A stretch of DNA of 64,000 bases, from contig CAZRPY010000001.1 of assembly GCA_964602245.1 (NCBI GenBank), positions 88,246-152,245 on the forward strand, written 5' to 3'. Positions 5,549-37,014 of the stretch are shown here, one piece after another (positions within the stretch are counted from its first letter, which is position 1; each line of letters begins with the position of its first letter). The position numbers and the translations under genes are program-made. The notes under the pieces were generated by a model. The model was not told where the DNA came from. It saw only the letters and a list, made by a program, of their open reading frames with translations, and searched no databases. The DNA comes from an uncultured Methanosarcinales archaeon (GTDB lineage: Archaea > Nanobdellota > Nanobdellia > Woesearchaeales > JACPIF01).

Positions 5549-6793
5549 ATGGCAATCTTTCTGGGTATGGATATTGATACTATGAGGAAGATAGATTATT
5601 GGGTAGGGATACCTGTATGCTTCTTTCTATCAATTATACATAATATTGGCAAGCTATTTAGAGGTAAAACTCGGGTAAAGAGTCCTAGGAAGTTCTTGTT
5701 TATGGAGATATCTGAGATGGGTAGCACTATTATTGCTTATTCTGCAATGTATTATATCAAAAAGAAGTATCTTGGAGCACAGCTTTACTTTCTTCTATTT
5801 AAAAGGAATAAAGAAAGCATAGATATCCTGAAAATAGTGCCTCAGGAGAATGTTATAACAATAAGAGATAGTTCTTTTCCAGCGTTAACTATTGATACGT
5901 TAGCAGCTATCTGGAAGCTTAGGAGAGAGAGGATTGATGTTTCATTCGACTTAGAGCTTTTTTCCAGATATTCTGCAATAATAAATTATTTAATAGGAGC
6001 TAAAGCTAGAGTTGGATTTCATAACTTTACAGCAGAAGGGCTTTACCGAGGAAATTTACAAACGCATGATGTAATGTACAATGCTTATTATCACATGAGC
6101 CAGAATTTTATGGCATTAGCTAAGGCATTAGAAGGGCCTGATGAAATACCTTTTCTAAAACAAGCAATAGATAAGAAAGAGGTTAAAGTGCCCAAGATAA
6201 TTAGCGAGAAAAGGGATAGAGAAGCTATAATCAAAAAAATACAGACATTAAATCCTGCAATCAATGAGAAAAAGAGAATAATATTGTTAAATCCCGGGGC
6301 TAGCAAATTGTTGCCATTAAGAGAATGGCCTCTGCAATACTATAAAGAATTGACAAAAAATCTGCTTGAGGATAAGAATAATTTTGTTGTTATAACTGGG
6401 CTTATAGGTGATAAGGCTTATGCACAGGAGATTTGTAAGTTTGCTGGAGATAAATGCCTTGATTTTACAGGAATGACTAAGACATTAAGAGAGTTAATTG
6501 ATTTGTATAATACTGCTGATGTATTAGTAACAAATGATTCAGGGCCTGCACATTTCTCTGCATTATCTGATATTAGAACAATTGTGTTTTATGGTCCTGA
6601 GACTCCTGTGCTATATGCACCTTTAGGAAGTAATTATACTGCTTTGTACTCAGGATTTGCCTGCTCGCCTTGTGTTTCTGCATATAATCATAGAAAAAGT
6701 CCATGCACTAACAACTTATGTTTGCAAGTGATAAAGCCTGAGGTTGTTCTTAAACTTATAAAGGATCATTTTAATGCAAGAGGAGATAAGTAA
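5549..6793 (+). CDS. glycosyltransferase family 9 (heptosyltransferase-like)
   Basis: LNPGASKLLPLREWP and VTNDSGPAHFSAL motifs typical of GT9. Confidence 0.8.
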   Translation: MAIFLGMDIDTMRKIDYWVGIPVCFFLSIIHNIGKLFRGKTRVKSPRKFLFMEISEMGSTIIAYSAMYYIKKKYLGAQLYFLLFKRNKESIDILKIVPQENVITIRDSSFPALTIDTLAAIWKLRRERIDVSFDLELFSRYSAIINYLIGAKARVGFHNFTAEGLYRGNLQTHDVMYNAYYHMSQNFMALAKALEGPDEIPFLKQAIDKKEVKVPKIISEKRDREAIIKKIQTLNPAINEKKRIILLNPGASKLLPLREWPLQYYKELTKNLLEDKNNFVVITGLIGDKAYAQEICKFAGDKCLDFTGMTKTLRELIDLYNTADVLVTNDSGPAHFSALSDIRTIVFYGPETPVLYAPLGSNYTALYSGFACSPCVSAYNHRKSPCTNNLCLQVIKPEVVLKLIKDHFNARGDK

Positions 6794-7892
6794 GATGCTG
6801 GTAAAGATTCTAGGCAGGATAATTAAGCCTAAAAATAAAAAGATTCCTGGAACAGTAAGGAACATACTTATTATTAGATCTGGTGCTTTAGGAGATGTGT
6901 TAATGACAACTCCGTTAATAGCTGCTATAAGAAAGAAGTACAAAAATGCTAAGATAAGTTATCTTGTAGGAGAGTGGTCTTCTATTGCTTTAAAAAATAA
7001 TCCTAATATTAATGAGATAATTGAATTTGATGATAGAATAATATTTCAAAGAAATATGGGAGAGATAATTAAACTAATTAGAAAAATTAGGGCTTTAATA
7101 TTTGATATTTGTTTTATATTAGATAAATCATATCATTGGAATCTTTTTGCATATCTTGCAAAAATACCATTTAGAATTGGGTTTGAGAGGAATGGAGAGG
7201 GGTTAGCTAATAACTTGGATGTTAAGTTTGATGCTAGTAAGCATGAGATTGAATATTATATGGATATTGCAAGGCTAATTGGAGTAAAAAATGCTAGCAA
7301 CGAGATGAAAATATTTACAACAGCGAAAGATAGGAAAAAGGTAAATAAATTCTTTAGGAAAAATAAGTTAATAAATAAGATTGTAATAGGTATTGCTGCT
7401 GGAGGGGCTGAAAATCCTGGACAGGCTATGTATGAAAAGAGATGGACGGTTGAAAAGTATATTGGGTTAACAAATATCTTGACTGAGAATCATAAAATAA
7501 TTGTGTTGCTGTTTGGGGGCAGGAATGATGCTAGTGTTAATAAGCTGATTAAGGAACAATGCTTGCATAAAAATCAAGTGTTAGATATTTCTAACTATAA
7601 CTTACATGAAGCTTTTGAAATGATGAAAAAATGCAGTTTATTTGTAACGCATGATTCTGGAGCAATGCATATTGCAGGAGCTTCCAAGGCTAAGCTAATT
7701 GCTTTATTTGGGCCAACTCAGGCAGAAAGGTTTGCTCCCAAGAATGCTATTATTATTAAGAGTCCTGCTGAAGGATGCCCTTGCTATGATATGTATGGCG
7801 ATTATAATAGGAAAGTTGCTGAGAAGTGTATGAGGGCTATCAGCGTTGATACTGTTTACCAGGAGATTAAGAAAATTATTAAGAATATTTAG
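6774..7892 (+). CDS. glycosyltransferase family 9
   Basis: IRSGALGDVLMTTPLIAAIRKKYKNAKISYLV and VTHDSGAMHIAGA. Overlaps the upstream gene by 20 nt; an alternative ATG sits at 6795. Confidence 0.8.
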   Translation: MQEEISKMLVKILGRIIKPKNKKIPGTVRNILIIRSGALGDVLMTTPLIAAIRKKYKNAKISYLVGEWSSIALKNNPNINEIIEFDDRIIFQRNMGEIIKLIRKIRALIFDICFILDKSYHWNLFAYLAKIPFRIGFERNGEGLANNLDVKFDASKHEIEYYMDIARLIGVKNASNEMKIFTTAKDRKKVNKFFRKNKLINKIVIGIAAGGAENPGQAMYEKRWTVEKYIGLTNILTENHKIIVLLFGGRNDASVNKLIKEQCLHKNQVLDISNYNLHEAFEMMKKCSLFVTHDSGAMHIAGASKAKLIALFGPTQAERFAPKNAIIIKSPAEGCPCYDMYGDYNRKVAEKCMRAISVDTVYQEIKKIIKNI

Positions 7893-9000
7893 AGGGATTA
7901 AATTGTATCAAGTTAACTGGAAGTATAAACCAATTTTGTTTATTATTGATATTATTGGATATGTAATTTTCTTCCCATATAGGATATTTAAAAGTAAAAT
8001 AAATGAAAATGAGATTAAGAAAATTCTAGTTATAAGGATTGATGAGATTGGGGATGTTTTATTGACAACACCTGTGTTCAGGGCTTTAAGGAGGAGGTTT
8101 CCTAAAGCTGAGATAAATGTGCTAATTAAGAAGGAGACTAAAGAACTATTGGAAAATAATCCAAATGTCGATAGCTTACTTATATGTGAACAGCCATGGC
8201 TTAAAAAGCCTATAAACTTGTTTTACTATTTCTCATTAATTAAGCAGTTAAGGAAAGAGAAATTTGATTTGGCAATAGAGCTGCATCCAGATGCTAGGAA
8301 TATTTTTCTAGGGTTTATTTCTGCAAGATGTGTTATAGGGCATACGTTTAGAGGCTTAGGTGTTTTGTTAGATAAAGTTACAAAGAGTAATCCTAATAAT
8401 GAACATATCATACAGCTTAATCTTGATGTTGCAAGATTAGTTAGAGCTAATGCTAGTGATGAATTAGAGGTGTATTATAGCAAAGAGAATGCGCAAAATG
8501 CTAAGAAGTTAGTTAGAAAATTAGGGAAGAAAATTGTTTGCATTAACCCTGGAACAGGAAGAGAGAGTAAGTTATGGCTGAATGAAAGATGGGCAAGATT
8601 AGCTGATGTCTTAATTGAGAAATATAATGTTCAGGTAATATTTACAGGAAGTAAGGAAGAGGAAGGTTTAATAAAAGACATCCAATTGCAAATGAGAAAT
8701 AAAAAGCAGACAATTAATTTAGCTGGAAAAACTAGTTTGTTGGATTTAGCTGCTTTGCTTAAGAAATGTAGATTGTTGATAGCAAGTGATTCAGGAACTT
8801 TACATATTGCAAAAGCTTTAGAAGTTCCATTAATAGGATTATATGGGGCTGTTAATCCTATGATATGGGGATATAATGATAAAAATGCCAGAAGTGTTTG
8901 CAAGGCTAAAGAGTTTAAAGAAAATAAAGGCAGGGCTATGATGGAGCTAATACAAATAGAGGATGTTTTGAAAGAGGTAAATGAATTATGGGAAAGGTAA
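7846..9000 (+). CDS. glycosyltransferase family 9
   Basis: IRIDEIGDVLLTTPVFRALRRRFPKAEINVLI and IASDSGTLHIAKA. No in-frame ATG before the conserved core; TTG candidates at 7846 and 7903. Confidence 0.75.
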   Translation: MILFTRRLRKLLRIFRGIKLYQVNWKYKPILFIIDIIGYVIFFPYRIFKSKINENEIKKILVIRIDEIGDVLLTTPVFRALRRRFPKAEINVLIKKETKELLENNPNVDSLLICEQPWLKKPINLFYYFSLIKQLRKEKFDLAIELHPDARNIFLGFISARCVIGHTFRGLGVLLDKVTKSNPNNEHIIQLNLDVARLVRANASDELEVYYSKENAQNAKKLVRKLGKKIVCINPGTGRESKLWLNERWARLADVLIEKYNVQVIFTGSKEEEGLIKDIQLQMRNKKQTINLAGKTSLLDLAALLKKCRLLIASDSGTLHIAKALEVPLIGLYGAVNPMIWGYNDKNARSVCKAKEFKENKGRAMMELIQIEDVLKEVNELWER

Positions 9001-9692
9001 AACTTAGCATTATAATGCCTGTATATAATGAAAGGCATACACTAAAACAAATAATAAAAGAAGTTATGCAACTTAATATTAAGGATGTAGAAAAAGAGGT
9101 AATAATAATTGATGATGGCTCAACTGACGGGTCAAGAGAAATATTAAAGAGCTTAGAGAGATTTGGCAAAGGAGATTGTAAAATATTCTACCATAGAAAG
9201 AATCTTGGCAAAGGAACTGCAGTTAATACTGGAATACAGAGATCTTCAGGCGATATAATAATAATACAGGATGCTGACTTAGAATATGATCCAAAAGAAA
9301 TACCTAAACTGCTTCAGCCAATAATAAATAATGAAGTAGAAGTAGTTTATGGCTCTAGATTCTTAAGACATCATAAGCCTCAATACCCTGTCTATTACTT
9401 TGGTAATATAGTCCTAAGCTGGGTAACAACTTTAATCTTTTTTACAAAAATCACAGATATGGAGACTTGCTATAAAGTTTTTAAAAGGGAGGTTATTAAA
9501 GATATTAAATTAAAGGCTAGAGGATTTGATTTAGAACCTGAGATAACAGCAAAAATTCTTAAGAACGGATATAAGATAAAAGAGTTATCTATTTCTTTTA
9601 GACCAAGGAAATTTGAAGAGGGTAAGAAGATAACATGGAAAGATGGACTTATGGCAATATTCTATCTACTAAAATATAGATTCTTTGATTAA
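8988..9692 (+). CDS. GT2 polyprenyl-phosphate sugar synthase (DPM1/GtrB-like)
   Basis: IIMPVYNE...IIIDDGSTDGS...DADLEYDP GT-A DXD architecture; 234 aa soluble form. Confidence 0.85.
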   Translation: MGKVKLSIIMPVYNERHTLKQIIKEVMQLNIKDVEKEVIIIDDGSTDGSREILKSLERFGKGDCKIFYHRKNLGKGTAVNTGIQRSSGDIIIIQDADLEYDPKEIPKLLQPIINNEVEVVYGSRFLRHHKPQYPVYYFGNIVLSWVTTLIFFTKITDMETCYKVFKREVIKDIKLKARGFDLEPEITAKILKNGYKIKELSISFRPRKFEEGKKITWKDGLMAIFYLLKYRFFD

Positions 9693-9780: not shown

Positions 9781-10920
9781 ATGGTTAAGAATAGTTTGAC
9801 TAAAAAAACTAAAGTATCAGTTATTATTCCTTTTCTGAATGAAGAAAAGTCAATAGGCAGATGTATTAGAAAAGTACAGGCTGTATTCAAGAGAAATAAT
9901 ATAAAAGGGGAAATAGTTACCATTGACTCAGATTCAACTGATAATTCTGCAAAGATTGCTAAATCATTAGGAGCTATTGTTGTAAATCAGCCATTAAGAG
10001 GTTATGGAAATGCTCTTAGGAAAGGGTTTGAAGTTGCTACAGGAGATATTATTGTTATGGGGGATGCGGATGATACATATAATTTTGATGAAATGCCAAA
10101 ACTATTAAGTCCTATAATTAATGAAGGTTATGATATTGTCAATGGCAACAGATTTGAAGGAAAATTAATGCCTGGGGCTATGAGCATATCTCATATTATA
10201 GGCAACAAGATGCTAACAATGTTTGTAACATTATTCTTTGGAAAGTTTAGCTCAGACCCTTATTCTGGGTACAAAGCAATAACAAAAGAGGCCTTAAATA
10301 AGATGGATTTAAAATCTAATAACTGGGAACTGAACTCAGAAATGATTTTGAAAGGCAAGAAAGCAAGACTAAAGACAAGAGAGGTTCCAATACATTATTA
10401 TCCAAGAGAGGGGGAATCAAAATTAAGTAGTATTGATGCTGCTTGGAAAAATATTAAGTTCATGTTACTCAACAGCCCTAATCATGTTTTCATTGTACCA
10501 GGAGCCATTATTATGTTTATTGGTTTTATTGCATTCTTACTTTTATATTTTAAAGGGATAACTATAGGTGCAATTAAGCTAAGTTATCTGTCATTGCTTC
10601 TTTCTGGAATTGTTATAATAATTGGTTTCCAAATACTATCTTTAGGATTTGTAGGAAAGATTTTTTTTGAAAGGAAAGAAAGTAATAATTATGTCAAAAG
10701 AATACTAACACTAGAGCAAGGACTTTTGCTAGGTTTTGCATTGCTTCTATCTAGTATAATTTTTGGTTTAGCTATATTATATAACTGGTATGTTGCAGGA
10801 TTTGCCGTTCTTGGTTTTAATAATATTGGGCTTGGAATAATATCGTTTGTGCTGACATCAATGGGTGTTCAAATAATTTTTACATCATTCCTCATGACTA
10901 TGATAAGGATTGATAAATAA
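9781..10920 (+). CDS. GT2 polyprenyl-phosphate sugar synthase with C-terminal TM helices
   Basis: VIIPFLNEE...TIDSDSTDNS...GDADDTY, followed by a hydrophobic C-terminal anchor. Confidence 0.8.
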   Translation: MVKNSLTKKTKVSVIIPFLNEEKSIGRCIRKVQAVFKRNNIKGEIVTIDSDSTDNSAKIAKSLGAIVVNQPLRGYGNALRKGFEVATGDIIVMGDADDTYNFDEMPKLLSPIINEGYDIVNGNRFEGKLMPGAMSISHIIGNKMLTMFVTLFFGKFSSDPYSGYKAITKEALNKMDLKSNNWELNSEMILKGKKARLKTREVPIHYYPREGESKLSSIDAAWKNIKFMLLNSPNHVFIVPGAIIMFIGFIAFLLLYFKGITIGAIKLSYLSLLLSGIVIIIGFQILSLGFVGKIFFERKESNNYVKRILTLEQGLLLGFALLLSSIIFGLAILYNWYVAGFAVLGFNNIGLGIISFVLTSMGVQIIFTSFLMTMIRIDK

Positions 10921-10959: not shown

Positions 10960-12525
10960 ATGAAGTTATATACAGAGAAATTTGATAAACTAGTAGTTGC
11001 TGTAATTGCTTTTTCTTTTATTCTTAGAATATATTTATCTCTAATTTCTGTACCACTGAATGGAGTTGAAACTATACACCCAAATATTATTAGGTATATG
11101 GCTGAGACCAAAACAATACCTCTCCTTGCACCTTTACCTCCAACAGCTGACTTGTTTCATTATACTCCCTTATTTCATATTATTGCCTCATTGTTGTATT
11201 TGATTTTTATCCATGTGAGTTACACTGCTGCTGAATTTTCTATCAAGATGTTATCTCCTATTTTTGCTTTATTTTCAATGATTTTGATATACCTCATTTC
11301 TATAAAATTATTTGGTAGCAAAAAAATAGGGTTTTATGCAGTATTGTTTTTTGCGTTTCTGCCATTAAGCATAAGCATGAGTAGCTATATGACCCTTGAT
11401 AATGAATTTGCTTTTTTAATCTTACTGAGCTTTTACTTTTTCATTACTAATCACTTTTTATTATCTGCGCTGTCATTAGGTCTTTCCTACAATGTGAAAG
11501 CAATTGCACTCTTTTACTTTCCATTTTTTGCATACTGCGTGTATGTTAAGTATAAATCTAGCAATTATGTTAGAAAAATGCTATTATATTTTGTGTTGAC
11601 ATTGCTTCTGGTTGCGCCTTGGATGATTAGAAATGCTATTATGCTGGATAATCCTGTTTACCCTTTGCTTAATAACTTTTTTAATGGGTGCAAGTACGAG
11701 ATACTTGATGATACATTTAACAAAGGCGGAAATACCTATAATTTCTTTTCTAAGAATTTTCTAGCAAAATTCTTTTTTGGGATATTCGGATTCCCAGAGG
11801 AGAATAAAGACATTAAATTTACTTACTATGGAATTTCACAAGATAGTGTAAGGAGTCTTATTAAGTTAGACTCTCAGTTTGCAGTAATATTGCTGAACTT
11901 ATGGGCTCTTGCAATTGTTATTTTTTCTATCCCAATAATCTTAGGGCTTTATTATTTATTTAAGAATAAAGAAAAATTCTCCATTTATGTTATTGTAATC
12001 ATTGTGTCAGGTATGATAATACATATGCTGTATATTTATCTGGCAGGCGATACAGCTACTAGATATTTTAGCCCAGTAATACCTTTCCTTGCCATTCTGT
12101 GGGCATATGGGTTAGTTATGACTATACAAAAATCTTTTTTCCGAGCATCATTTGTAAAAATAAGTGGAAAGATGTTTATTGTTGCTATGCTGCTTGGATT
12201 TATGGCAACTGAAGCATATAAAACCCAGCTCCTAGCATTTGGTGTTCATAAATATGACTCTTTATTTCTCTGGATAAATACCTATATTCCAGATGACGCA
12301 TATATTTATGAAGTCAGTGGAATAATTACTTATTACACTAATAATTATTATACTGATTCAGTTGAAAAACTGAAAGAAACTAAAGGATATATAATCATAC
12401 AAGATCCTAAGCAAATATATGGACCACCGTTATATATTCCATCAAAGATTCCAGATGAAATTGAATACTATAAAGAATTGTACTATGATACAAAATCAGG
12501 AGTTAAAATATATAAAGTCAGCTGA
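10960..12525 (+). CDS. large polytopic membrane protein, putative GT-C-like glycosyltransferase
   Basis: 521 aa, about 11 TM segments, aromatic-rich C-terminal soluble domain. Confidence 0.45.
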   Translation: MKLYTEKFDKLVVAVIAFSFILRIYLSLISVPLNGVETIHPNIIRYMAETKTIPLLAPLPPTADLFHYTPLFHIIASLLYLIFIHVSYTAAEFSIKMLSPIFALFSMILIYLISIKLFGSKKIGFYAVLFFAFLPLSISMSSYMTLDNEFAFLILLSFYFFITNHFLLSALSLGLSYNVKAIALFYFPFFAYCVYVKYKSSNYVRKMLLYFVLTLLLVAPWMIRNAIMLDNPVYPLLNNFFNGCKYEILDDTFNKGGNTYNFFSKNFLAKFFFGIFGFPEENKDIKFTYYGISQDSVRSLIKLDSQFAVILLNLWALAIVIFSIPIILGLYYLFKNKEKFSIYVIVIIVSGMIIHMLYIYLAGDTATRYFSPVIPFLAILWAYGLVMTIQKSFFRASFVKISGKMFIVAMLLGFMATEAYKTQLLAFGVHKYDSLFLWINTYIPDDAYIYEVSGIITYYTNNYYTDSVEKLKETKGYIIIQDPKQIYGPPLYIPSKIPDEIEYYKELYYDTKSGVKIYKVS

Positions 12526-13600: not shown

Positions 13601-15007
13601 TTGCTTGAAGGTGGTGCAATGAAGAGAGTAATATTAGTTAATCCCAATACAACTGAAGTATACGAATCTTCTAAAGTCAAGTACTCTGTACCACAGTATG
13701 CTCCTTTAAATCTACTTATAATAGCTGGAGCATTGAAACAGGAAGGGCATAAGGTTAAGCTAGTGGATCTTGACCTAATTGAAAAGAATATATTTGAGAC
13801 TTTAGAAAAAGAAGTCAGTGAGTTTCAGCCTGAGATTGTGGGTATTACCTTTACCTCTGCGTTATATAGCCAATGCATGAAAACAATTGAGATAATAAGA
13901 AAAAATGTTCCTAATGCACTAATAGTTGCGGGAGGTGCACATGCCTCTTCTGAGCCTAGGTCAGTATTGAAAAGGGATATAGATATTGCAATAATGGGGG
14001 AAGGGGATTATGCTATTAACGATATAATTAAATTTGACTTAAAAGACATCAGAGGAATTGCATATAAAAATGAGAAAAAAGATATTATAATAAATCTTCC
14101 GAGACCATTTGAAAAAGATTTGGATAAGACTCCTATGCCTGATTATGACTTGGTTGATATTTATACCTATAAAGTACCTTATACCCTCAGAAGAAGATTG
14201 CCGGTTGCACCTTTAGAAACTTCTCGAGGATGTCTGTTTGGATGCGTATACTGCACAAAATCAGTTCAAGGAAAAACATTTAGAGTGAAAAGTTCTCAGA
14301 GAGTATTTGAAGAGATTAAGGCATTAAAAGAAAGAGGATATAGAGAATTCCATATAGTTGATGACATGTTTACTACATTCCCTTCTAGGACTAAAGATAT
14401 CTGTAAATTAATGATTGAAAATAAAATAGATATGAAATGGATGTGCTCTAATGGAATTAGAGTGAATTCTGTTGATGAGGAATTACTAAGAATAATGAAA
14501 AAAGCTGGCTGCTACTCTGTATCATTTGGAGTGGAATCTGGAAATGATAAAATATTAAAAAGGATTGATAAAGCTGCTACAACTGATGATGCAAGAAAAG
14601 CAGTCAAGTTATGCAAAAAAGTTGGCATACAGACTATATGCTTCTTTATGTTTGGTTTGCCAGATGAAACTGAAGAGAATTTAAGGGAGACATTAGACTT
14701 TGCCAAAGAGCTTAATCCTGATATTGCTAAATTTGATATAATGATACCATTGCCTTCTACCATTATCTATGAGGAATGGAAAGGAAAGTACATTGAAAGC
14801 TATAACTGGGATGATTATGCTTTTCATAAGAGAAAGCCAGTGTACAATCATCCTAACTTAAGCTGGGAAACTCTTAATAAATACTATCATCAGGCTTATA
14901 GAGAGTTCTATCTTAGACCTTCTTATATATTTAGAAGACTCGTTAAAAGCACACTACAGGGAACTATCTTTAAAGATATAGGGATGCTTATGAGGGTGAG
15001 GTTCTAG
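13601..15007 (+). CDS. cobalamin-binding (class B) radical SAM enzyme
   Basis: N-terminal Rossmann-like B12-binding region, then CLFGCVYC (CxxxCxxC) radical SAM motif. Confidence 0.85.
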   Translation: MLEGGAMKRVILVNPNTTEVYESSKVKYSVPQYAPLNLLIIAGALKQEGHKVKLVDLDLIEKNIFETLEKEVSEFQPEIVGITFTSALYSQCMKTIEIIRKNVPNALIVAGGAHASSEPRSVLKRDIDIAIMGEGDYAINDIIKFDLKDIRGIAYKNEKKDIIINLPRPFEKDLDKTPMPDYDLVDIYTYKVPYTLRRRLPVAPLETSRGCLFGCVYCTKSVQGKTFRVKSSQRVFEEIKALKERGYREFHIVDDMFTTFPSRTKDICKLMIENKIDMKWMCSNGIRVNSVDEELLRIMKKAGCYSVSFGVESGNDKILKRIDKAATTDDARKAVKLCKKVGIQTICFFMFGLPDETEENLRETLDFAKELNPDIAKFDIMIPLPSTIIYEEWKGKYIESYNWDDYAFHKRKPVYNHPNLSWETLNKYYHQAYREFYLRPSYIFRRLVKSTLQGTIFKDIGMLMRVRF

Positions 15008-15024
15008 TTACCTCTAAAAAATAA

Positions 15025-16431
15025 TTAGAGATACTTCAAGCGGTCTTTTTCCTTCCATAAGCCTAGATCTTCATGTGAGCTAGTAAATAGAGAGACATTA
15101 TTGTTCCATAATTTTTCAAGAATATTAATAGTCTTCTTTGCAACATCCTTACCATATATCTTTTTTGCCTTACTCATTTTATGCCTTAAATTTGGCTCAT
15201 TGTAAACTTTTGATATATTATCTGAAACAAAATTGCTACTAAAAGGTGGAATTAATAGATTACTCTTTGCTTCGAAGACTGTTTCTGGCCTGTCTGTATT
15301 AAATCTGGCTGTCAGGCAAGGCTTGCCAAGCTCGTTCATTTCTTCCTGCATACTACCTGAATCTGTATAAATAGCCCAACAATTACTGCTTTCAAGAAAT
15401 TCTATTACTTGTGAATACTCTCTCCATAATTGAGTAAAAAGGAAGTTTTCGTTTGTATTGCTTAAATCTATCAATTTATTTCTTATTTTATAACGCTCTA
15501 ATGCTAACTTAGAAGCGGTTAATTCAACAAAAACAACTTTTATTTTTTTCCTAACCAGATCCAATAAACCATTAATTATTGCTTTAAACCTGCGATCTGT
15601 TAGATTATCCCTTCTATGGATATCAACTCTTAGCCATTCACCTTTCTCAAGCTTAGAATACTCAGCAAAAATACTATTCGCAGATTTCTCCCTTTTTTTA
15701 AGATTTACAGCGTCAACTACAGTGTTTCCTGTTACAAATATTCTTTCTTCTTTATAGCCTTCTTTTACTAAATTTTTTTTATTTAATGCGACTGGGGCAA
15801 AATGGTACTGGCAGCCTGCTGATGCGACAAAAGTATCCCATTGCTCAGGAAATGGCTCGCTTCTGTCAATAAACCATGCCCCATTAAATTGTTGCTCAAC
15901 AAGTTGCTCAAATTTGAGCTTTTCTTTTAATTTCTTAAAAGACTCGGGAGACATTCCACGCAAGCCAGCTTCGCCTTGCAAAGATTTATTATTGGTTGCA
16001 AAGAGCCATGCAGATGGTATAATTGCAGATGAAATAGTATCGCCATTGACATATATCCAGCTCTCTACTTCTGGATATTTCTTCTTTAATTCTGCTGCAA
16101 GCCATCTTGTTTTAACAAACATTTCTGATGATTTCTGGCTTAAATCGCCTCTAATCTGGAAGTCTATTGCAAGATGCTCTTCAAATTTGAATTCTTTAAT
16201 GCCATAACCTAAAAGATTATCAAAATGCTGGCCTGTGTTTAGCACTATAAATGGGATATTTCTTTTATTGCATTCGTACATTAGACTCCATTCCTTATAA
16301 AAGCAAGGTTTAGTGGCTATCACTAGAACAAGAACCTTTTTACTTGCCTTTACTGCATTACTATATGCTTTATTCAGAATCTGTTCATTAATTTTTATTG
16401 GCAGCCAATTAACATTAATTTTTGCTTCCAT
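15025..16431 (-). CDS. UDP-N-acetylglucosamine 2-epimerase (WecB/NeuC family) with N- and C-terminal extensions
   Basis: VNGDTISS, QGEAGLRG, IFVTGNTVVDA, DSGSMQEE and NTDRPE align to WecB motifs. 468 aa versus about 370 typical. Confidence 0.75.
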   Translation of the reverse strand: MEAKINVNWLPIKINEQILNKAYSNAVKASKKVLVLVIATKPCFYKEWSLMYECNKRNIPFIVLNTGQHFDNLLGYGIKEFKFEEHLAIDFQIRGDLSQKSSEMFVKTRWLAAELKKKYPEVESWIYVNGDTISSAIIPSAWLFATNNKSLQGEAGLRGMSPESFKKLKEKLKFEQLVEQQFNGAWFIDRSEPFPEQWDTFVASAGCQYHFAPVALNKKNLVKEGYKEERIFVTGNTVVDAVNLKKREKSANSIFAEYSKLEKGEWLRVDIHRRDNLTDRRFKAIINGLLDLVRKKIKVVFVELTASKLALERYKIRNKLIDLSNTNENFLFTQLWREYSQVIEFLESSNCWAIYTDSGSMQEEMNELGKPCLTARFNTDRPETVFEAKSNLLIPPFSSNFVSDNISKVYNEPNLRHKMSKAKKIYGKDVAKKTINILEKLWNNNVSLFTSSHEDLGLWKEKDRLKYL

Positions 16432-16668: not shown

Positions 16669-17730
16669 TTAAAACTCTTTTAATACTTCGTCAACTGTCT
16701 TAATAACTGTATCTGGTTTTAAAGTTTCCATACACCATATATTTTCAGTACACTCGCTCTTAAAAAAGCATTTGCATTCCTGTTTTGGCTGTATTAGTTT
16801 ACCTAGGCCATACAGCTCAAACTCATGCTTATTAAATATATTATTGTACACTACTATTTTCTTCTCAAGTGCTATAGCAATATGCATTGCCATAGTAACA
16901 GCTGTAATTACTAACGTGCACTGATCCACAATATTTACAAAATCATGAAATGGATGACAGCCAAAGTAATAGGCATGAGTTTTTTTTGACATTTCTTTAT
17001 TTCTAATATCTTCTAATTCACCGCCTAGAAATACTACATCATAGCCTTTTGCCATTAATTTATTAGCTAGTTCTATCCAATACTTGTCAGGCCACATCCT
17101 AGTCTTCCATCTTGGATTACAGCCTGTATTAAGACCAATTACTATTTTTTTGAATTTTGGAAATTTTAATTTAGTAGGTTGCTTCTGTAGCATGTAACGC
17201 TGCATCTCATATTTGAAACCGCAAAGCTCAAATATTTCTTCATAATAACTTTTTGTATTCTCTCTATTATAATCGTCGTCAACACCAGAGAAGAATTTAT
17301 GTTCCGCATTCTTGTTTATTGGCTCACATCTTCCATTTAATAATTTATAGCCATGTTTTTCATCTGCCTTTACCATGTTGATTATTGCGCATGCTTCTCT
17401 GTCTTTATCTAAATTATATATTATATCAAACTTATCTGCCTGCAAATAGGCTAGATTTCCTGCGTTAAGTTCAAGAGGTACTTCTACTATTCCTTTTATT
17501 ATTTCTGGAAAGTATGTTACCCATGTAATTTCACAATTAGGATAAACTTCCTTCAGTTTTCTAATTAAAGGGGTTGTTCTAATTACATCGCCCATTGCAC
17601 CTAATTTAACAATAAGAATTCTCCTACCTCTTTTAATGTAGTGCTCACACTGACATTTTGAGCCTTCTTTCTTGTGCCAGATACATGGCCTATCGCCTAA
17701 AAAATATAAACAGTCCTTGCTTAGATACAT
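16669..17730 (-). CDS. glycosyltransferase family 9 with Cys-rich N- and C-terminal extensions
   Basis: VKLGAMGDVIRTTPLIRKL GT9 motif; N-terminal C-x8-C-x9-CxC plus His; C-terminal CKC...C...WC. Confidence 0.7.
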   Translation of the reverse strand: MYLSKDCLYFLGDRPCIWHKKEGSKCQCEHYIKRGRRILIVKLGAMGDVIRTTPLIRKLKEVYPNCEITWVTYFPEIIKGIVEVPLELNAGNLAYLQADKFDIIYNLDKDREACAIINMVKADEKHGYKLLNGRCEPINKNAEHKFFSGVDDDYNRENTKSYYEEIFELCGFKYEMQRYMLQKQPTKLKFPKFKKIVIGLNTGCNPRWKTRMWPDKYWIELANKLMAKGYDVVFLGGELEDIRNKEMSKKTHAYYFGCHPFHDFVNIVDQCTLVITAVTMAMHIAIALEKKIVVYNNIFNKHEFELYGLGKLIQPKQECKCFFKSECTENIWCMETLKPDTVIKTVDEVLKEF

Positions 17731-19013: not shown

Positions 19014-20642
19014 ATGATATATGTTGTAGGATCTGGACCAGCTGGCGTGGCCTGCGCTTATGCCCTTATAAGGAAAGGGCTGAAAGTTACTATGCTAGAT
19101 GCTGGAATAGAATTAGAGCAAGTGAAGAGTAAAATTCTGGAGAAATTGCAAAGGTCAAAGAAGTGGGATCCTAAATTGCTAGAAAAGATAAAAGGTAATA
19201 CAAAAGTGACTGTTAAGGGTGTGTCAAGGAAATTAATATATGGTTCTGATTATCCGTATAAAGAAGCTGATACTAACATAAAGTTAACTGCTGAGGGAAT
19301 TACAGCTAATCCTTCTTTTGCATATGGTGGATTGAGTAATGTGTGGGGGGCAGCAGTAATGCCCTATAGAGCTGAAGATATAAAAGACTGGCCTATAACT
19401 TTAGAGCAAATAGCTCCATACTACACAGCTGTGTTGGAATTCATGCACATTGCAGTTGCAAACATAGGAAATCCTAAGGATTTCCTAGCTGTAAAGGAAT
19501 CTAAGATTCCTTTAAGAGATTATCTGCAAGAATTGTTTCCTATTTACGCTAGGTATTGCCAAGATTTTAATTATAGCAGACAGGCTTTTTTGATGATAAA
19601 AGATTTAGAAGTTAATAAAAAGAAATTGAATGATGCTGGAATATTCTTTGGGAGCTCACGATTGGTTGTGCAATTTGAGGCTGGAGAAAAGAAACCTGGA
19701 TGTGTGTATTGTGGACTATGCCTGCATGGTTGCCCTTATAAGTTAATTTATAGCAGCGCTTTTACTGTTGACAAACTTAGAAAAAATAAGAATTTTAGAT
19801 ATCAGAAGGATGTGATTGTAGAAAAGATAAATGAAAAAGAAGATAATGTTATTATTTTGGCGCATGAAAGAAATAATAAAAAAAGGATAATATTTAAAGG
19901 CTCGAGAGTTTTTTTAGCGTGTGGTGCATTAACAACAACTAGAATAATGCTGGAATCTATGAGAGCTTATAATGAAGAGGTGATCTTAAAAGATTCTCAA
20001 TATTATCTGTTTCATCTGCTAAGATATAAAAGTGCTGGTAATGTTACAAAAGAGCCTTTGCATACTTTAGCTCAGATGTATATTGAAATATTTGATAATG
20101 AAATTGATAATAATTCTGTTCATTTGCAGCTATATACTTACAGCGATTTATATGATAGTGCATTAAAGAGTATTTTTAGAGTTGGTTATAGTCTTCTAAA
20201 AAGACCTTTAGTACAAATTATGAGCAGGCTCATAATAGGACAGGGCTATCTTCATTCAAATAGCTCGTCAACAATTTCTGTCAAATTAGAAAAGGGCTAT
20301 AAGAAACTTTATTTAAGAAACAATGAAAATAAGAGTTCTAATAGAAAAATTAAGGATATTATGTGGAAGTTATTTAAGAATAGGAGGTATATTAAGGCTA
20401 TGCCTTTGATACCCTTACTTAAGATAGGCAAGCCAGGAGAGAGCAATCATCTTGGAGGGAGCTTTCCAATGAGAAAGAATCCTAAAAGATTTCAGACAGA
20501 TGTTTTAGGCAGACCTTTTGGATACAAGAAGGTTCATCTTGTGGACTCAAGCGTATTTCCAAGCATACCTGCACAGACTATAACTCTAACTGTCATGGCA
20601 AATGCTTATAGAATTGCAGACCAGTATGATAAACTAAAATGA
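19014..20642 (+). CDS. FAD-dependent GMC-family oxidoreductase with embedded 4Fe-4S-type cysteine motif
   Basis: N-terminal VVGSGPAGVACA FAD motif; C-terminal VHLVDSSVFPSIP...MANAYRIADQ GMC_oxred_C-like; internal CVYCGLCLHGCP (CxxCxxCxxxCP). Confidence 0.65.
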   Translation: MIYVVGSGPAGVACAYALIRKGLKVTMLDAGIELEQVKSKILEKLQRSKKWDPKLLEKIKGNTKVTVKGVSRKLIYGSDYPYKEADTNIKLTAEGITANPSFAYGGLSNVWGAAVMPYRAEDIKDWPITLEQIAPYYTAVLEFMHIAVANIGNPKDFLAVKESKIPLRDYLQELFPIYARYCQDFNYSRQAFLMIKDLEVNKKKLNDAGIFFGSSRLVVQFEAGEKKPGCVYCGLCLHGCPYKLIYSSAFTVDKLRKNKNFRYQKDVIVEKINEKEDNVIILAHERNNKKRIIFKGSRVFLACGALTTTRIMLESMRAYNEEVILKDSQYYLFHLLRYKSAGNVTKEPLHTLAQMYIEIFDNEIDNNSVHLQLYTYSDLYDSALKSIFRVGYSLLKRPLVQIMSRLIIGQGYLHSNSSSTISVKLEKGYKKLYLRNNENKSSNRKIKDIMWKLFKNRRYIKAMPLIPLLKIGKPGESNHLGGSFPMRKNPKRFQTDVLGRPFGYKKVHLVDSSVFPSIPAQTITLTVMANAYRIADQYDKLK

Positions 20643-21493
20643 AAAAGGCTTTAATATGTGCTATCACGGGGGCAAATGGGTATGTTGGATCATGTATTGC
20701 AGATTATCTTAGAAAGCGTAATTTTGTTGTATATGAGATGGGCCGCTCTTTAAAAGGCGATAAAGACTATTTCATTCCTTTCTCTTTGGAAAAAGAAATC
20801 CCTAAAAATAGTTTAAAGAATGTTGATGTGCTTGTGCACTGTGCATGGGATTTTAAACAAATCATATGGAAAGATATAATTAGAATTAATGTTAACGGCT
20901 CTTTAAGATTGTTTAAGGCTGCTAAAAAAGATGGTGTTAAAAAGATTATTTTTATATCTACTATGTCTGCATTTGATGGCTGTAAATCCTTATATGGAAA
21001 AGCTAAGCTTAAAGTTGAAAGAGAGGCTAAGAAATTAGATGTGATAATTATAAGGCCTGGTTTGGTTTATGGCAGTAAATCTTCTGGAATGGTGGGAGCT
21101 ATAGGAAGGTTAATGGCAATCTCTCCTTTAGTTCCAGTTGTTGCTGCTAATCAAGTATTGTATCTTTGCCATAGCAAAGATTTGTCAAAACTAATTTTTA
21201 GATTATGTACTTCAAAGAGCAAGATTACAAAACCAATAATTGCTGCGAGTGAGGGAGGTCTAAGATTTAAAGAAATACTTAGGAGATTAGCTTTAAGGAG
21301 AGGGAAGAAAATAATGCTAGTTCCAATCCCTTCCTGGGCAGTTTTATTCGGATTAAAAACCTTAGAGAAAATAGGTCTAAAAGCTAGGGTTAAGAGCGAT
21401 AGTTTAATAGGTTTGTTGAATGCTGATCCAAAGCCTGATTTTACAGAAACCAGAAAGACTAAAGTAAGGTTTAGAGAATTTTTAATCGAATGA
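20639..21493 (+). CDS. NAD(P)-dependent epimerase/dehydratase family protein (SDR)
   Basis: ICAITGANGYVGSCIADYL glycine-rich motif; 284 aa; 4-nt overlap with the upstream gene. Confidence 0.7.
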   Translation: MKKALICAITGANGYVGSCIADYLRKRNFVVYEMGRSLKGDKDYFIPFSLEKEIPKNSLKNVDVLVHCAWDFKQIIWKDIIRINVNGSLRLFKAAKKDGVKKIIFISTMSAFDGCKSLYGKAKLKVEREAKKLDVIIIRPGLVYGSKSSGMVGAIGRLMAISPLVPVVAANQVLYLCHSKDLSKLIFRLCTSKSKITKPIIAASEGGLRFKEILRRLALRRGKKIMLVPIPSWAVLFGLKTLEKIGLKARVKSDSLIGLLNADPKPDFTETRKTKVRFREFLIE

Positions 21494-21550
21494 TTAGCTG
21501 GTTACTTCTTTCACTAACTTTATATAGTCTCTTTTACTTTCTCGTCTATA

Positions 21551-22150
21551 ATGAGGAAACTTAAGGTTGAGTATAATCATGACAGATGTATAGGGACTAA
21601 GGCTTGTATAGCTGCTGCTCCTAGGTATTTTGAGTTAAAGGGAGGCAAAGCTCATTTAATAGGCAACTACAAGCATGAGGGGATACAGACTTCTGAATAT
21701 TCATGTGATGATATCACTTATAATGAAATTGTGGAAGCAGGAAAGTCTTGCCCTGTTAATGCAATTAAGGTAATGGACATGAATTTAAACAAGGTTTTAG
21801 TTGGGACTGAGATTACTACAGATCCAGACTATAAAGAGGTTATAGCTGAATATGACGACAGCAAAGAATTTGAGTTAGATCATAACGGATATTTTCTTAT
21901 TAGAGTAAATCATGAGACTAAGGATATTGAGGTTGGTTTTTGCAATGAAAAAAATATTGTTTTAGTAAAGGTAACAGGTAAAAAGCCAATTGATATTTAC
22001 CAGACAATTATAAATAAGCTAAAGCTAGTTAGCAGGACTGATCATGGGGCTTATATTGGTAGAGAATTGCAGAAGGCTTATACTGCTTTGCAATTAGGTT
22101 TAGAATATGTGCAAGATGATGAATTAGAATTTAATAAGAAAGCTAAATAA
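21551..22150 (+). CDS. ferredoxin-like mono-cluster domain protein with unknown C-terminal domain
   Basis: N-terminal HDRCIGTKACIAAAP...SCPVNAIKV resembles single-cluster ferredoxins. Confidence 0.5.
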   Translation: MRKLKVEYNHDRCIGTKACIAAAPRYFELKGGKAHLIGNYKHEGIQTSEYSCDDITYNEIVEAGKSCPVNAIKVMDMNLNKVLVGTEITTDPDYKEVIAEYDDSKEFELDHNGYFLIRVNHETKDIEVGFCNEKNIVLVKVTGKKPIDIYQTIINKLKLVSRTDHGAYIGRELQKAYTALQLGLEYVQDDELEFNKKAK

Positions 22151-22188: not shown

Positions 22189-23757
22189 ATGACATCAAAG
22201 ATAGTTTTAGTTTATCCATCTTCTTCACCAGATATTGAAGGTGGAGAGGTTGACTTTGAACGCTACAAGAGTGTTCCTATTGGGATTCTTAATATTGCTA
22301 CTTGGCTAGATCATAATGGTTATGATGTTAAAGTTATTGATGGAAGGGCTTATACTAAGAAAGAGACTTTAGAAAGGCTAAAGAAAGAGTTGCATGGGGC
22401 ATTATGTGTTGCATTTGGCATTACAACTGTGCAAATCAAGCATGGATTGTATCTTTCTGAATTTATTAAGAAAACAGATAAAGATATTCCTGTAATATGG
22501 GGTGGCATTCATCCTACAATGTACCCTGTGCAGACTATACAAGATAAGGTTGTTGATTATGTTCTTTATGGAGAAGTAGAGTATCCTTTACTAGATTTGA
22601 TTAGATTTCTTGAAGGAAAGAAAAGGAAAATTAGTGATGTAAAAGGATTAGTGTATAAAAGAAATGGTGAGGTTATAATTAATCCAATGCATCAAGGAAT
22701 TAATCCAAATGAATTGCCAATTCCAAAATATGAGTTATTAGATATTAACAAGTATATTGAAAGAGAGTTCTTAACTAACTTAGGCAAGATTAGGAAGATG
22801 AGAGCTTTAGATATTAACACTAGCAGAGGATGTCCTTATAGATGTAATTTCTGTCCAAATACTATGGATGTGTTTAAGAGGTATAGAGTTCAGGCATTAG
22901 ACAGGGTTTTCCAGCTTATAGATCATTTGGTTGAAACTTATAAGCTTGATCATATATGGTTTTGTGATGAGCTTTTCTTTGTTGAGAAGAATAAGGTTAG
23001 AGCTATTGCTGAGCATTTGATTGAGAAAAATTATAATATAACATGGGAGTCTAATGCTAGAGTTGACCAGTTTAATGACAGACTATTGGATGATGAACTA
23101 CTTGCGTTGATAAAGAAGTCTGGATGTTTTGCGTTAAGAATGGGGATGGAGTCTGGCAGCAACAGAATTCTAAAGCTTATGAAGAAAGATTGTGTAGTTG
23201 ATGATGTAATAAGATCAGTAAAACAATGTGAAAAATATGGAATAATACCTATAGGCAATTTTATCATTGGTTTTCCAACTGAAACTAGAGAGGAAATGAT
23301 GGCTACTGCCAAGCTGATATTAAAGCTTAAGGATATATCGCCAAATGGATTGTTTTATAGCCCTGGATTGTTAAGGCCTTATCCTGGAACAGAGATTTAT
23401 GAGTATGCAAAACAGTATGGTGGCTTTGATGAACCTAAGACTTTAAGGGAGTGGGCTGAGAAAGAGATTGATGTTGGCTTGTTTGTTAATCCTAAAGACT
23501 TAAGATGGATTAGGGATCCTGAATGGCTGCTTAATTTCCAAGTATATTTCTATGTTTTAACTGTAATGAAAACTCATGAATTGACTAAGAAGCATTTATC
23601 ACCTGCATGGAAGTTAGCTGGCAAGATTTCTGAGTTCAGGCTTAAGCATAATTTCTGGAAGTTTGGCTGGGAGCCAAGGATGATGATAGAGATAAAGAAA
23701 TTCCTAGACAGAGATTCATCTTTAGCAAGGGTTATTAAAAGTACTTTGAGTCTGTAA
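22189..23757 (+). CDS. cobalamin-binding (class B) radical SAM enzyme
   Basis: B12-binding-like N-terminal domain, CPYRCNFC radical SAM motif, 522 aa. Confidence 0.85.
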   Translation: MTSKIVLVYPSSSPDIEGGEVDFERYKSVPIGILNIATWLDHNGYDVKVIDGRAYTKKETLERLKKELHGALCVAFGITTVQIKHGLYLSEFIKKTDKDIPVIWGGIHPTMYPVQTIQDKVVDYVLYGEVEYPLLDLIRFLEGKKRKISDVKGLVYKRNGEVIINPMHQGINPNELPIPKYELLDINKYIEREFLTNLGKIRKMRALDINTSRGCPYRCNFCPNTMDVFKRYRVQALDRVFQLIDHLVETYKLDHIWFCDELFFVEKNKVRAIAEHLIEKNYNITWESNARVDQFNDRLLDDELLALIKKSGCFALRMGMESGSNRILKLMKKDCVVDDVIRSVKQCEKYGIIPIGNFIIGFPTETREEMMATAKLILKLKDISPNGLFYSPGLLRPYPGTEIYEYAKQYGGFDEPKTLREWAEKEIDVGLFVNPKDLRWIRDPEWLLNFQVYFYVLTVMKTHELTKKHLSPAWKLAGKISEFRLKHNFWKFGWEPRMMIEIKKFLDRDSSLARVIKSTLSL

Positions 23758-35580: not shown

Positions 35581-37014
35581 ATGAAGGTCTTGCTTGTTAA
35601 TCCAATAATAAGGGCATCTGAATTTCCACCTAGCAGGTTTCCATTAGGCTTAGCCTATATTGCTTCTGCATTACTTGATAAAGGGCATGAGATTGAAGTT
35701 CTAGACCTTAATATGAATAGATTACCAGAAGAAGAGATTAAAAGAAGAATTAAGGCAAGTAGATTTGATGCTGTTGGCTTAACTGGAATGATAACTGAGT
35801 ATCAGCAGATTAAGTATCTTTCTGCTTTAATTAAAGAAATAAGGCCTGATGCTAAGATTATTCTTGGAGGAAGTGGTGGAACTTCAGTGCCTGAATTAGT
35901 GCTTAGGAAAACTAAAGTAGACATTATTGTTATTAGTGAAGGTATAGACACAACAGTTGAGCTTGCTGATTTTCTTGAGAGAGGTAAAGATATTAAAGAT
36001 ATAAGAGGGATTTATTATAAGGATGAAGAAGGAAAGATACATATAACATTGCCAAGAGCGCCAATTAAAGAGGTTGATAAGATATTATTTCCAGCAAGAG
36101 AAGAGTTTGATTTTGAGAAATACATACAACCTTCTAATTTAAGGATATTTAACAGTAAGATAAGAACTACTAATGTAATTGGAAGCTATGGATGTCCTTA
36201 CAGATGTACTTACTGTTATCACCAATTGTTTGGATATGATTTTAGAGGAAGAAGCCCTGCTAATTTAGTTGAGGAGCTAAGAATGCTTTATGATGACTAT
36301 AAAGTTAATGGGATTATTTTTAATGATGATGAGTTTGTCATGGATAAAGGCAGGGTGCATGAGATTTGTGATGAGATTAAGAAAGAGAAGCTGGATGTTT
36401 TATGGGGGCAGAATGGAAGAGTGAATTTAATGGATGATGAATTGCTAGCTAATATGTATTCAGCTGGATGCAGGTTTTCTTGTTATGGTATTGAATCTGG
36501 TAGCCAGTTAATTTTGAATGAGATTAAGAAGGGTGTTAGAGTTGAGCAGGCTAAAGAGGCTGTATTGAAGACATGGGAATCTGGGATGCTGCCTCATGGT
36601 TATTTGATAATTGGCTCGTTTTCTGAAACTCCTGAAACAGTTATGGATACTATTAAGTTTTGTCATGAGACTTCACTGATTGGACAATTTTCATTTATGA
36701 CTCCTTTGCCTAATACACATCTATATCAGCAAGCAAGGCAGATGGGAAGATTAAAGCAGAGTGATGAATGGCTGCTTGAGAGATGGGGAGAGTGGAATGA
36801 GAAGTTAATAACTAATCTTTCTTTAATACCTGATAAAGAGCTTATTAGATTGAAAAGATGGGCTGAGAGAAAAATATTATTTGGAAATTTAACAGGAAAT
36901 GTCTGGCAGCACATGAAAATAATAAAGATGAGAAATATTATGAAAGAAGGTCTTACACTTGCAAAGAGATGGTACTTCAGAGAATATGAGCCTGCTGCGA
37001 GTGTGCCTGCTTAG
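35581..37014 (+). CDS. cobalamin-binding (class B) radical SAM enzyme
   Basis: B12-binding-like N-terminal domain; CPYRCTYC motif; 477 aa. Confidence 0.85.
   Translation: MKVLLVNPIIRASEFPPSRFPLGLAYIASALLDKGHEIEVLDLNMNRLPEEEIKRRIKASRFDAVGLTGMITEYQQIKYLSALIKEIRPDAKIILGGSGGTSVPELVLRKTKVDIIVISEGIDTTVELADFLERGKDIKDIRGIYYKDEEGKIHITLPRAPIKEVDKILFPAREEFDFEKYIQPSNLRIFNSKIRTTNVIGSYGCPYRCTYCYHQLFGYDFRGRSPANLVEELRMLYDDYKVNGIIFNDDEFVMDKGRVHEICDEIKKEKLDVLWGQNGRVNLMDDELLANMYSAGCRFSCYGIESGSQLILNEIKKGVRVEQAKEAVLKTWESGMLPHGYLIIGSFSETPETVMDTIKFCHETSLIGQFSFMTPLPNTHLYQQARQMGRLKQSDEWLLERWGEWNEKLITNLSLIPDKELIRLKRWAERKILFGNLTGNVWQHMKIIKMRNIMKEGLTLAKRWYFREYEPAASVPA

Follow-up and report, generated by a model that had tools for sequence, protein, structure and literature searches.

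Why would a GMC-family flavoprotein carry a cysteine motif of the kind that binds iron-sulfur (Fe-S) clusters, and which of the proteins encoded beside it does it work with? The question arises from a 64,000-nucleotide stretch of archaeal DNA (contig CAZRPY010000001.1 of GenBank assembly GCA_964602245.1), hereafter the window, whose positions serve as coordinates throughout. Three consecutive open reading frames (ORFs) on its forward strand encode a 542-amino-acid flavoprotein with the motif CxxCxxCxxxCP, a 284-amino-acid short-chain dehydrogenase/reductase (SDR) and a 199-amino-acid protein with a ferredoxin domain. An earlier note on this DNA had located all three ORFs correctly (Table 1) and had interpreted them as an electron-transfer module for the oxidation of sugars to keto-sugars or uronates, built around a GMC enzyme with an inserted ferredoxin-type element. 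As described below, the cysteine motif and the SDR withstand closer analysis, whereas the ferredoxin-domain protein appears to belong elsewhere.

The N-terminus of the flavoprotein (MIYVVGSGPAG) carries the dinucleotide-binding motif GxGxxG at residues 6-11. Across an alignment of 63 homologues with 45-69% identity (alignment A1), G6, S7 and G8 of this motif never vary and the conservation of G11 is 90% or more; residues 2-46 match the Pfam families NAD_binding_8 and Pyr_redox_2. Both GMC domains pass the Pfam thresholds marginally (GMC_oxred_C, 28.3 bits with a cut-off of 24.6; GMC_oxred_N, 23.4 bits with a cut-off of 23). The AlphaFold2 (AF2) model (pLDDT 92.6) displays the two-domain GMC fold: all 50 of the Foldseek matches listed are GMC enzymes, with E values down to 3e-25, so that domain matches, motif and model agree with the earlier assignment to the GMC flavoproteins. 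The top structural matches are the α subunit of BcGDH, the FAD-glucose dehydrogenase of Burkholderia cepacia (PDB 8grj, 6a2u), and the large subunit of fructose dehydrogenase (7w2j and others), both with a TM score of 0.71, while pyranose and C-glycoside oxidases rank behind them at about 0.6. BcGDH α is also the best sequence match in the PDB, with an E value of 1.6e-4 for the single sequence and of 4e-14 for the family profile at an identity of about 16%, and the cysteine loop falls inside the top-scoring segment of the profile match. H479, which is invariant in A1, aligns in sequence with His476 of BcGDH, where His476 and Asn519 form the catalytic His/Asn pair (PMC6719666). The product of the first ORF is thus a GMC-fold, FAD-dependent dehydrogenase of the iron-sulfur branch of the superfamily, and it is probably cytoplasmic.

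The cysteine motif is well conserved in this family. Every sequence in A1 carries C230, C236, C240 and P241, and 61 of the 63 also carry C233. Among 150 mutually diverse representatives of clusters formed at 50% identity, CxxCxxCxxxC is kept in 143, the second cysteine alone is missing in six and one sequence fails the pattern; the full motif including the proline is found in 134. A HMMER alignment places C230, C236 and C240 opposite C212, C218 and C222 of BcGDH, and C233 opposite Asn215. In the BcGDH crystal structure, these three cysteines are the ligands of a 3Fe-4S cluster, through which electrons move from FAD on to the cytochrome subunit (PMC6719666). A four-cysteine version of the loop has been reported for the α subunit of acetol dehydrogenase (AceDH) from Methylacidiphilum fumariolicum, whose motif C187-DQ-C190-GF-C193-FQG-C197 arranges all four cysteines around a cuboidal 4Fe-4S core, 10.9 Å from the flavin and with an added copper (bioRxiv 10.64898/2026.06.11.731722). 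Judged by these sequence relationships, the motif is neither a chance feature nor an inserted domain but the homologous Fe-S loop of a known GMC branch, and the flavoprotein very likely holds an Fe-S cluster close to its flavin. The earlier suspicion that the motif is real is therefore upheld by its conservation in orthologues and by its position on the Fe-S site of solved relatives, and its description as atypical for GMC enzymes remains true of the classical oxidases but not of BcGDH, fructose dehydrogenase and AceDH, which provide precedents. The idea of an insertion, in turn, gives way to that of a Cys-rich loop which these three enzymes share. An inserted ferredoxin domain was considered and rejected, as the motif sits in a loop of the GMC fold homologous to that of BcGDH, and Pfam does not recognise an independent ferredoxin domain there (Fer4_16, residues 230-277, 19.6 bits with a cut-off of 30).

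The predicted cofactor is most probably a cuboidal [4Fe-4S] cluster without further metal. It is favoured over the copper-containing core of AceDH because the copper ligands of the latter, Asp188 and Met144 of the β subunit (bioRxiv 10.64898/2026.06.11.731722), have no counterpart here: the position of Asp188 is taken by Val231, and an equivalent of the Tat-exported β subunit is missing. The restriction of losses to the second cysteine fits a site with three core ligands, in which the presence or absence of a fourth decides between 4Fe-4S and 3Fe-4S, and homologues lacking this residue would hold a 3Fe-4S cluster.

The GMC gene is nearly always accompanied by the SDR gene. We counted the latter in 81 bacterial and archaeal loci of the GMC gene, window included, by a six-frame HMM search, because long antisense ORFs masked it in high-GC genomes. 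In 64 loci it immediately follows the GMC gene on the same strand, and three more have it at another place in the locus; in a further three, the contig ends too early for a call. In the window, the stop codon of the GMC gene and the start codon of the SDR gene overlap (ATGA), and among the best 150 representatives two proteins, P0400 (829 amino acids) and P0486 (782 amino acids), carry the Fe-S GMC part at the N-terminus and an SDR at the C-terminus that aligns with the whole of the window SDR at 39% and 42% identity, respectively. These fusions, which might also stem from an assembly or stop-codon artefact, would be handy for biochemistry. The window protein is an SDR, as the earlier note had it, and of the extended type, matching the Pfam family Epimerase (50 bits) and other SDR families, and its cofactor motif TGxxGxxG (G11, G14, G17) and catalytic residues S107, Y119 and K123 are invariant in 46 sequences. 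Its AF2 model (pLDDT 93.6) is nearest to NDUFA9, an accessory subunit of complex I (TM score 0.78-0.84, rmsd about 3 Å), and nucleotide-sugar 4-epimerases fit less well (TM score 0.60-0.67). The SDR also has weak matches to uronate dehydrogenase (6mfh) and to the decarboxylating sterol-4-carboxylate 3-dehydrogenase (6jkg). We regard the SDR as a true partner in the function of the GMC protein, and our confidence in both the cofactor and the partner assignment is high.

Table 1 Position and basis of the main features of the GMC locus and of the neighbouring genes discussed in the text
Feature	Position	Strand	Basis
GT2 protein with four C-terminal transmembrane (TM) helices, polyprenyl-phosphate sugar synthase-like; probable substrate supplier (inferred)	9781..10920	+	Pfam GT2, TM helices, NCBIfam and PDB matches
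10-TM protein beside the GT2 gene; candidate user of a lipid-linked sugar (weak)	10960..12525	+	PMT_2 (GT-C), 24.2 bits, cut-off 26.1
GMC-fold FAD dehydrogenase with Fe-S loop, 542 amino acids	19014..20642	+	Pfam, AF2 model, Foldseek
GSGPAG dinucleotide-binding motif, residues 6-11	19029..19046	+	Conservation, N-terminal Rossmann-type Pfam matches
CVYCGLCLHGCP, residues 230-241, predicted [4Fe-4S] (or 3Fe-4S) binding loop	19701..19736	+	Conservation, BcGDH alignment, AceDH spacing
His479 codon, candidate catalytic base	20448..20450	+	Invariant in A1, aligned to BcGDH His476
NAD(P)-dependent extended SDR, 284 amino acids, conserved partner of the GMC protein	20639..21493	+	Pfam, synteny, fusions, AF2
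ATGA overlap of GMC stop and SDR start codons	20639..20642	+	Sequence
Ferredoxin (three-Cys, 3Fe-4S type) plus DUF4346, 199 amino acids, outside the GMC module	21551..22150	+	Pfam Fer4_15 and PterinBD-DUF4346, neighbourhoods
B12-binding radical SAM enzyme, 522 amino acids, probable client of the ferredoxin-DUF4346 protein	22189..23757	+	Pfam, NCBIfam

The family is large. A word-indexed search returned at least 2,405 matches, an exhaustive profile search 1,891 clusters at 50% identity (E ≤ 1e-30), and species representatives contain at least 583 genomic loci. Bacterial carriers are found in Verrucomicrobiota, Acidobacteriota, Dormibacterota, Chloroflexota, Actinobacteria (Dactylosporangium, Catelliglobosispora), cyanobacteria and Melainabacteria, and archaeal ones in Woesearchaeota and Micrarchaeota. 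Current annotation labels such genes ‘choline dehydrogenase-like flavoprotein’ (GMC) and ‘nucleoside-diphosphate-sugar epimerase’ (SDR).

An Fe-S cluster in a GMC enzyme is as such already known, so far from periplasmic respiratory dehydrogenase complexes, which are valued in biosensors, and from one copper-containing oddity. BcGDH α (PDB 6a2u, 8grj) and the fructose dehydrogenase of Gluconobacter japonicus (7w2j) share with the window protein the GMC fold and the position of the Cys-rich loop, their catalytic His aligns with H479, and their cluster shuttles electrons from FAD to an external partner, the role we propose here. In these enzymes, however, the motif reads CCxxxxCxxxCP (3Fe-4S) instead of CxxCxxCxxxCP, and the FAD of BcGDH is covalently bound to His105, for which the aligned residue here is Val110 (GGLSNVWGAA versus GGTTWHWAAS, read manually in a low-confidence stretch of the alignment). 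Both are membrane-bound complexes that deliver electrons to a multihaem cytochrome c, lack an SDR partner and oxidise free sugars for respiration; like AceDH, they are periplasmic and exported via a small Tat hitch-hiker subunit. AceDH α displays the same CxxCG[F/L]CxxGC spacing as the window protein, a likeness taken from its reported motif and not from a direct alignment, and it differs in having T in place of P at the last motif position, a covalent FAD and acetol as its substrate. In 78 loci of the GMC family, neither a multihaem ORF (at least two CxxCH) nor a small ORF with a Tat motif was found within 4 kb, and the comparison of loci revealed no conserved cluster of small ORFs beside the GMC gene. 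What is new, then, is a large branch that has four cysteines, an SDR and a place in glycan loci, and that has no hitch-hiker or cytochrome genes nearby.

What would such a pair do? Pyranose 2-oxidases and C-glycoside 3-oxidases (for example 9fl2, 7qva, 7dve), which are GMC enzymes as well, convert secondary sugar hydroxyls to ketones, the chemistry that we propose for the window enzyme, but they depend on O2, carry no Fe-S loop and are not paired with an SDR. A pointer to the substrate comes from the GT2 protein upstream. Its TM helices lie near residues 232, 260, 308 and 338, its best NCBIfam matches, all below the cut-off, are AglJ, Dol-P-hexose transferase, ArnC and PpgS, and its best PDB matches are ArnC and the DPMS of P. 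furiosus. It scores 456 bits against an HMM built from the GT2 genes with four TM helices that neighbour the GMC-SDR pair elsewhere, and 44 of the 81 loci, window included, have a gene of this type no more than 10 kb from the GMC gene. The conserved combination of an oxidase and a reductase with a polyprenyl-phosphate-type GT2 suggests two-step epimerisation of a lipid-linked sugar, so the uronate or keto-sugar that had been expected as the end product is not indicated. We therefore propose, with moderate confidence and at roughly even chances, that the GMC flavoprotein and the SDR may form an oxidase-plus-reductase epimerase for a lipid-linked sugar that resembles DprE1/DprE2 in its logic, a reading that draws on gene context.

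In the model that we propose, the GT2 synthase would make a dolichyl- or undecaprenyl-phosphate-linked sugar, and the GMC flavoprotein would oxidise a secondary hydroxyl of this sugar to a ketone. The two substrate electrons would leave FADH2 singly through the cluster, which by homology would lie roughly 10-12 Å from the flavin, and reach an external acceptor; with this route out, the enzyme could work without O2. The SDR would then reduce the ketone from the opposite face with NAD(P)H, yielding the inverted sugar, and membrane glycosyltransferases of the surrounding glycan island would use the epimerised product. The ferredoxin-domain gene would be a separate unit serving the B12-radical SAM enzyme that follows it. 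NDUFA9 is an SDR at a membrane interface, and the likeness of the SDR model to it may be counted in favour of a lipid-linked substrate. We infer the substrate, the epimerase chemistry, the cluster type and the electron acceptor rather than observe them.

The parallel is to the mycobacterial decaprenylphosphoryl-ribose 2′-epimerase, DprE1/DprE2, the role of which is summarised in PMC11127046. There, as we suggest here, a flavoprotein oxidises a hydroxyl of a polyprenyl-phosphate sugar to the ketone and hands the electrons to an external acceptor, an NAD(P)H-dependent SDR reduces the ketone again with inversion, and the two genes are adjacent, as are those of the GMC-SDR pair. The likeness lies in the proposed mechanism only, as neither DprE1 and the GMC protein nor DprE2 and the SDR are homologous, and none of the DprE1, DprE2 and VAO-type families is among the Pfam and NCBIfam matches of the pair. 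DprE1 has a VAO-type fold without an Fe-S cluster and DprE2 is a classical SDR, whereas the proteins described here have a GMC fold and an extended, NDUFA9-like SDR fold. The lipid-linked sugar of the mycobacterial system, furthermore, derives from a UbiA-type enzyme that depends on phosphoribosyl pyrophosphate (PRPP), where we propose a GT2 synthase.

A broader version of the proposal, which we advance tentatively and at somewhat less than even chances, is that the whole family of about 1,900 clusters at 50% identity may represent an unrecognised epimerase of dolichyl- and undecaprenyl-phosphate sugars, composed of an Fe-S GMC enzyme and an NDUFA9-like SDR. Such a system would be the O2-independent equivalent of DprE1/DprE2, without homology to it, and would provide unusual sugar epimers for extracytoplasmic glycosylation. 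Large polytopic membrane proteins also accompany the pair in 52 of the 65 loci with enough flanking sequence. The main family of these, M635 (about 635 amino acids, 7-10 TM helices, many invariant Trp, Pro and Arg), is found at 13732-15636 of a locus termed L031 and in 15 other loci (alignment A3), and adjoins the GMC, SDR and GT2 genes in Verrucomicrobiota and Acidobacteriota. An HMM of M635 has no match in the window, and hhalign detected no relation of M635 or of a second family, M655, to the 521- and 624-amino-acid membrane proteins of the window.

Several observations weigh against the epimerase proposal. The second catalytic residue of BcGDH, Asn519, aligns with Thr522 of the window protein, albeit in a sequence alignment only, which makes the active site unlike that of canonical GMC enzymes. 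No SDR was detected within 10 kb of the GMC gene in 11 of the 81 loci, and no GT2 of the four-TM type in 37, many of which are on short contigs; in the window, the GT2 gene sits 8 kb away from the GMC gene. An assignment of M635 and M655 as GT-C glycosyltransferases is unsupported: neither family has a Pfam match or a PDB profile match, and NCBIfam contributed nothing but a sub-threshold match of M655 to WsfD (21.7 bits with a cut-off of 80). The electron acceptor poses a problem as well, as Woesearchaeota-like anaerobes are not known to contain quinones. Finally, we found no description in the literature of a GMC-SDR-polyprenyl system or of this GMC family.

Of the alternatives, the one that survives best, though we consider it unlikely, retains the pair but not its lipid-linked substrate: their substrate would be a nucleotide sugar in solution, a free glycoside or some other alcohol, with a glycan context that is only loosely related. 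The closest solved relatives do oxidise free glucose or fructose, the loci without a nearby GT2 would find an explanation, and the SDR family is routinely labelled as an epimerase of nucleotide sugars. Set against this, GT2 genes of the four-TM type appear far more common near the pair than an assumed few copies per genome would lead one to expect, the epimerisation of nucleotide sugars normally needs one SDR only, and the SDR fold is nearer to the membrane-interface protein NDUFA9 than to GalE-type enzymes.

Alternatively, and with rather little probability in our view, the pair could bring about a net modification of the sugar, such as oxidation of C6 to the aldehyde or acid, from which the SDR would make a pentose by decarboxylation, or else leave the lipid carrier with a stable keto- or deoxy-sugar. 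GMC enzymes oxidise primary as well as secondary alcohols and extended SDRs include decarboxylases and dehydratases; the weak matches of the SDR to 6mfh and 6jkg point the same way. The comparison of loci, however, showed no conserved aminotransferase, dehydratase or other tailoring gene beside the pair, and oxidation followed by re-reduction, as in DprE1/DprE2, is the simplest role for a flavin oxidase paired with an NAD(P)H-dependent reductase.

The three-protein module, in which the Fe-S cluster of the GMC enzyme would hand its electrons to the ferredoxin and a keto-sugar or uronate would be formed, appears quite improbable. The three genes are contiguous and co-directional, with the ferredoxin-domain gene next but one after the GMC gene as described before; a close relative (P0242, P0125) appears to carry the SDR and ferredoxin genes on one short contig of 2739 bp, and a DPANN archaeon living without oxygen could conceivably use a ferredoxin as the acceptor. 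Against the module stands, first, the layout itself, as the SDR and ferredoxin genes are split by a 57-bp AT-rich spacer that holds a TATA-like box, TTTATATA, about 25 nucleotides before the ATG. Second, the reduction of a low-potential ferredoxin by alcohol oxidation is thermodynamically unfavourable. Third, no homologue of the ferredoxin-domain protein was found in the 80 other GMC loci, and, conversely, its own homologues lack GMC company: none of seven neighbourhoods contains a GMC gene (three of them, L082-L084, were also checked by tblastn), and in five a B12-radical SAM gene is adjacent or within two genes, once inside a phosphonate cluster.

This protein combines the Pfam domains Fer4_15 (residues 6-74) and PterinBD-DUF4346 (residues 109-189) and belongs to a family of about 200 amino acids with 381 matches, mostly in Woesearchaeota and Nanoarchaeota. 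In 119 of 120 homologues its cluster motif has the form Cx2Xx2C...CP with a residue other than cysteine in the middle, and the CP is present in all 120; the site is predicted to be of the three-cysteine, 3Fe-4S type. In the Woesearchaeota assembly GCA_016188215.1, the ferredoxin-DUF4346 and radical SAM genes occur in the same order, with products 80% and 86% identical, respectively, to those of the window. The absence from other GMC loci and the radical SAM neighbourhoods led us to reject the ferredoxin-DUF4346 protein as the redox partner of the GMC enzyme and to take it out of the electron-transfer module in which it had been placed. The best reading is that it assists the radical SAM enzyme and is not the acceptor of GMC electrons; it may be a dedicated reductant or a corrinoid/pterin helper of such enzymes, and appears to be uncharacterised. 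Combinations of the two genes occur in DPANN glycan clusters and once in the phosphonate cluster, at 7001-9190 of locus L082, 5001-7015 of L087 and 3203-5588 of L086, in addition to the pair in the window (21551-22150 and 22189-23757).

The remaining alternative, that the cysteine loop is a structural zinc site or a disulfide-rich loop in an ordinary O2-using GMC oxidase, has very little to commend it: four clustered cysteines can bind zinc, but in two relatives the homologous positions are Fe-S ligands proven by crystallography, and loss of the second cysteine alone reproduces the 3Fe-4S ligand set. Strict anaerobes and DPANN archaea, moreover, commonly carry the family, and they would have little use for an oxidase that needs O2.

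The window as a whole is one very large glycan-assembly island. It encodes five GT9 and several GT2 and GT4 glycosyltransferases, a Wzx-like flippase, methyltransferases, two NodU-like carbamoyltransferases, UDP-glucose dehydrogenase, GlmS, GlmM and GlmU-like proteins and three B12-binding radical SAM enzymes. The latter (13601-15007, 35581-37014 and the one beside the ferredoxin-DUF4346 gene) have their best matches, all sub-threshold, in BchE, HpnJ and the P-/C-methyltransferase families, and these matches suggest an unusual radical C-methylation or rearrangement of sugars. GT9 genes of the ‘LPS heptosyltransferase’-like kind lie at 5549-9000, 16669-17730 and 37525-38577. A UDP-GlcNAc 2-epimerase-like protein is encoded on the reverse strand at 15025-16431; its Pfam match spans residues 188-435 of 468, leaving about 185 N-terminal amino acids without a match, and a 47% identical homologue occurs near the ferredoxin-DUF4346 gene in L084. 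The GC content of the window is about 33% and falls to 27-30% between 52000 and 58000, where three ORFs for proteins of 450-500 amino acids (54666-56108, 56110-57609 and 58310-59653) adjoin a chitin-synthase-like GT2 gene (53421-54659); none of the three has a match in Pfam or NCBIfam.

The 80% and 86% identities to the gene products of GCA_016188215.1 suggest a Woesearchaeota-like (DPANN) host, despite the bacterial-type scores of GlmM and GlmS. A RadA/Rad51-type recombinase (61687-62745), which indicates an archaeal host, is encoded alongside the bacterial-type GlmM (49307-50668) and GlmS (46176-47936), and the GT9 and Glm genes together may reflect an extensive set of bacterial-type glycan genes in a DPANN genome. 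A scan of the window for sigma-70 promoters and terminators gave counts equal to the shuffled expectation, the host being probably archaeal, and no tRNA genes were found in the window. The closest genomic homologue of the GMC protein (67% identity) is found in locus L002, on an 11-kb contig (CAZBGH010000044.1) of a ‘Methanosarcinales’ metagenome-assembled genome; as other genes of the window point to Woesearchaeota, this contig may be mis-binned or the gene laterally transferred.

If the epimerase proposal is false, a clean re-annotation would still stand, in which the cysteine motif represents an Fe-S site of a known type and the ferredoxin belongs with the radical SAM enzyme. If it is true, it would explain how rare sugar epimers arise on the carrier lipid in organisms without DprE1/DprE2, provide a new enzyme pair for glycoengineering and assign a role to the thousands of genes that at present go under ‘choline dehydrogenase-like flavoprotein’ or ‘nucleoside-diphosphate-sugar epimerase’. 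In either case, the window reveals a much larger Fe-S branch of the GMC superfamily, with a canonical four-cysteine motif and a reductase partner, which is at home in the glycan loci of many phyla, including those of anaerobes and DPANN archaea.

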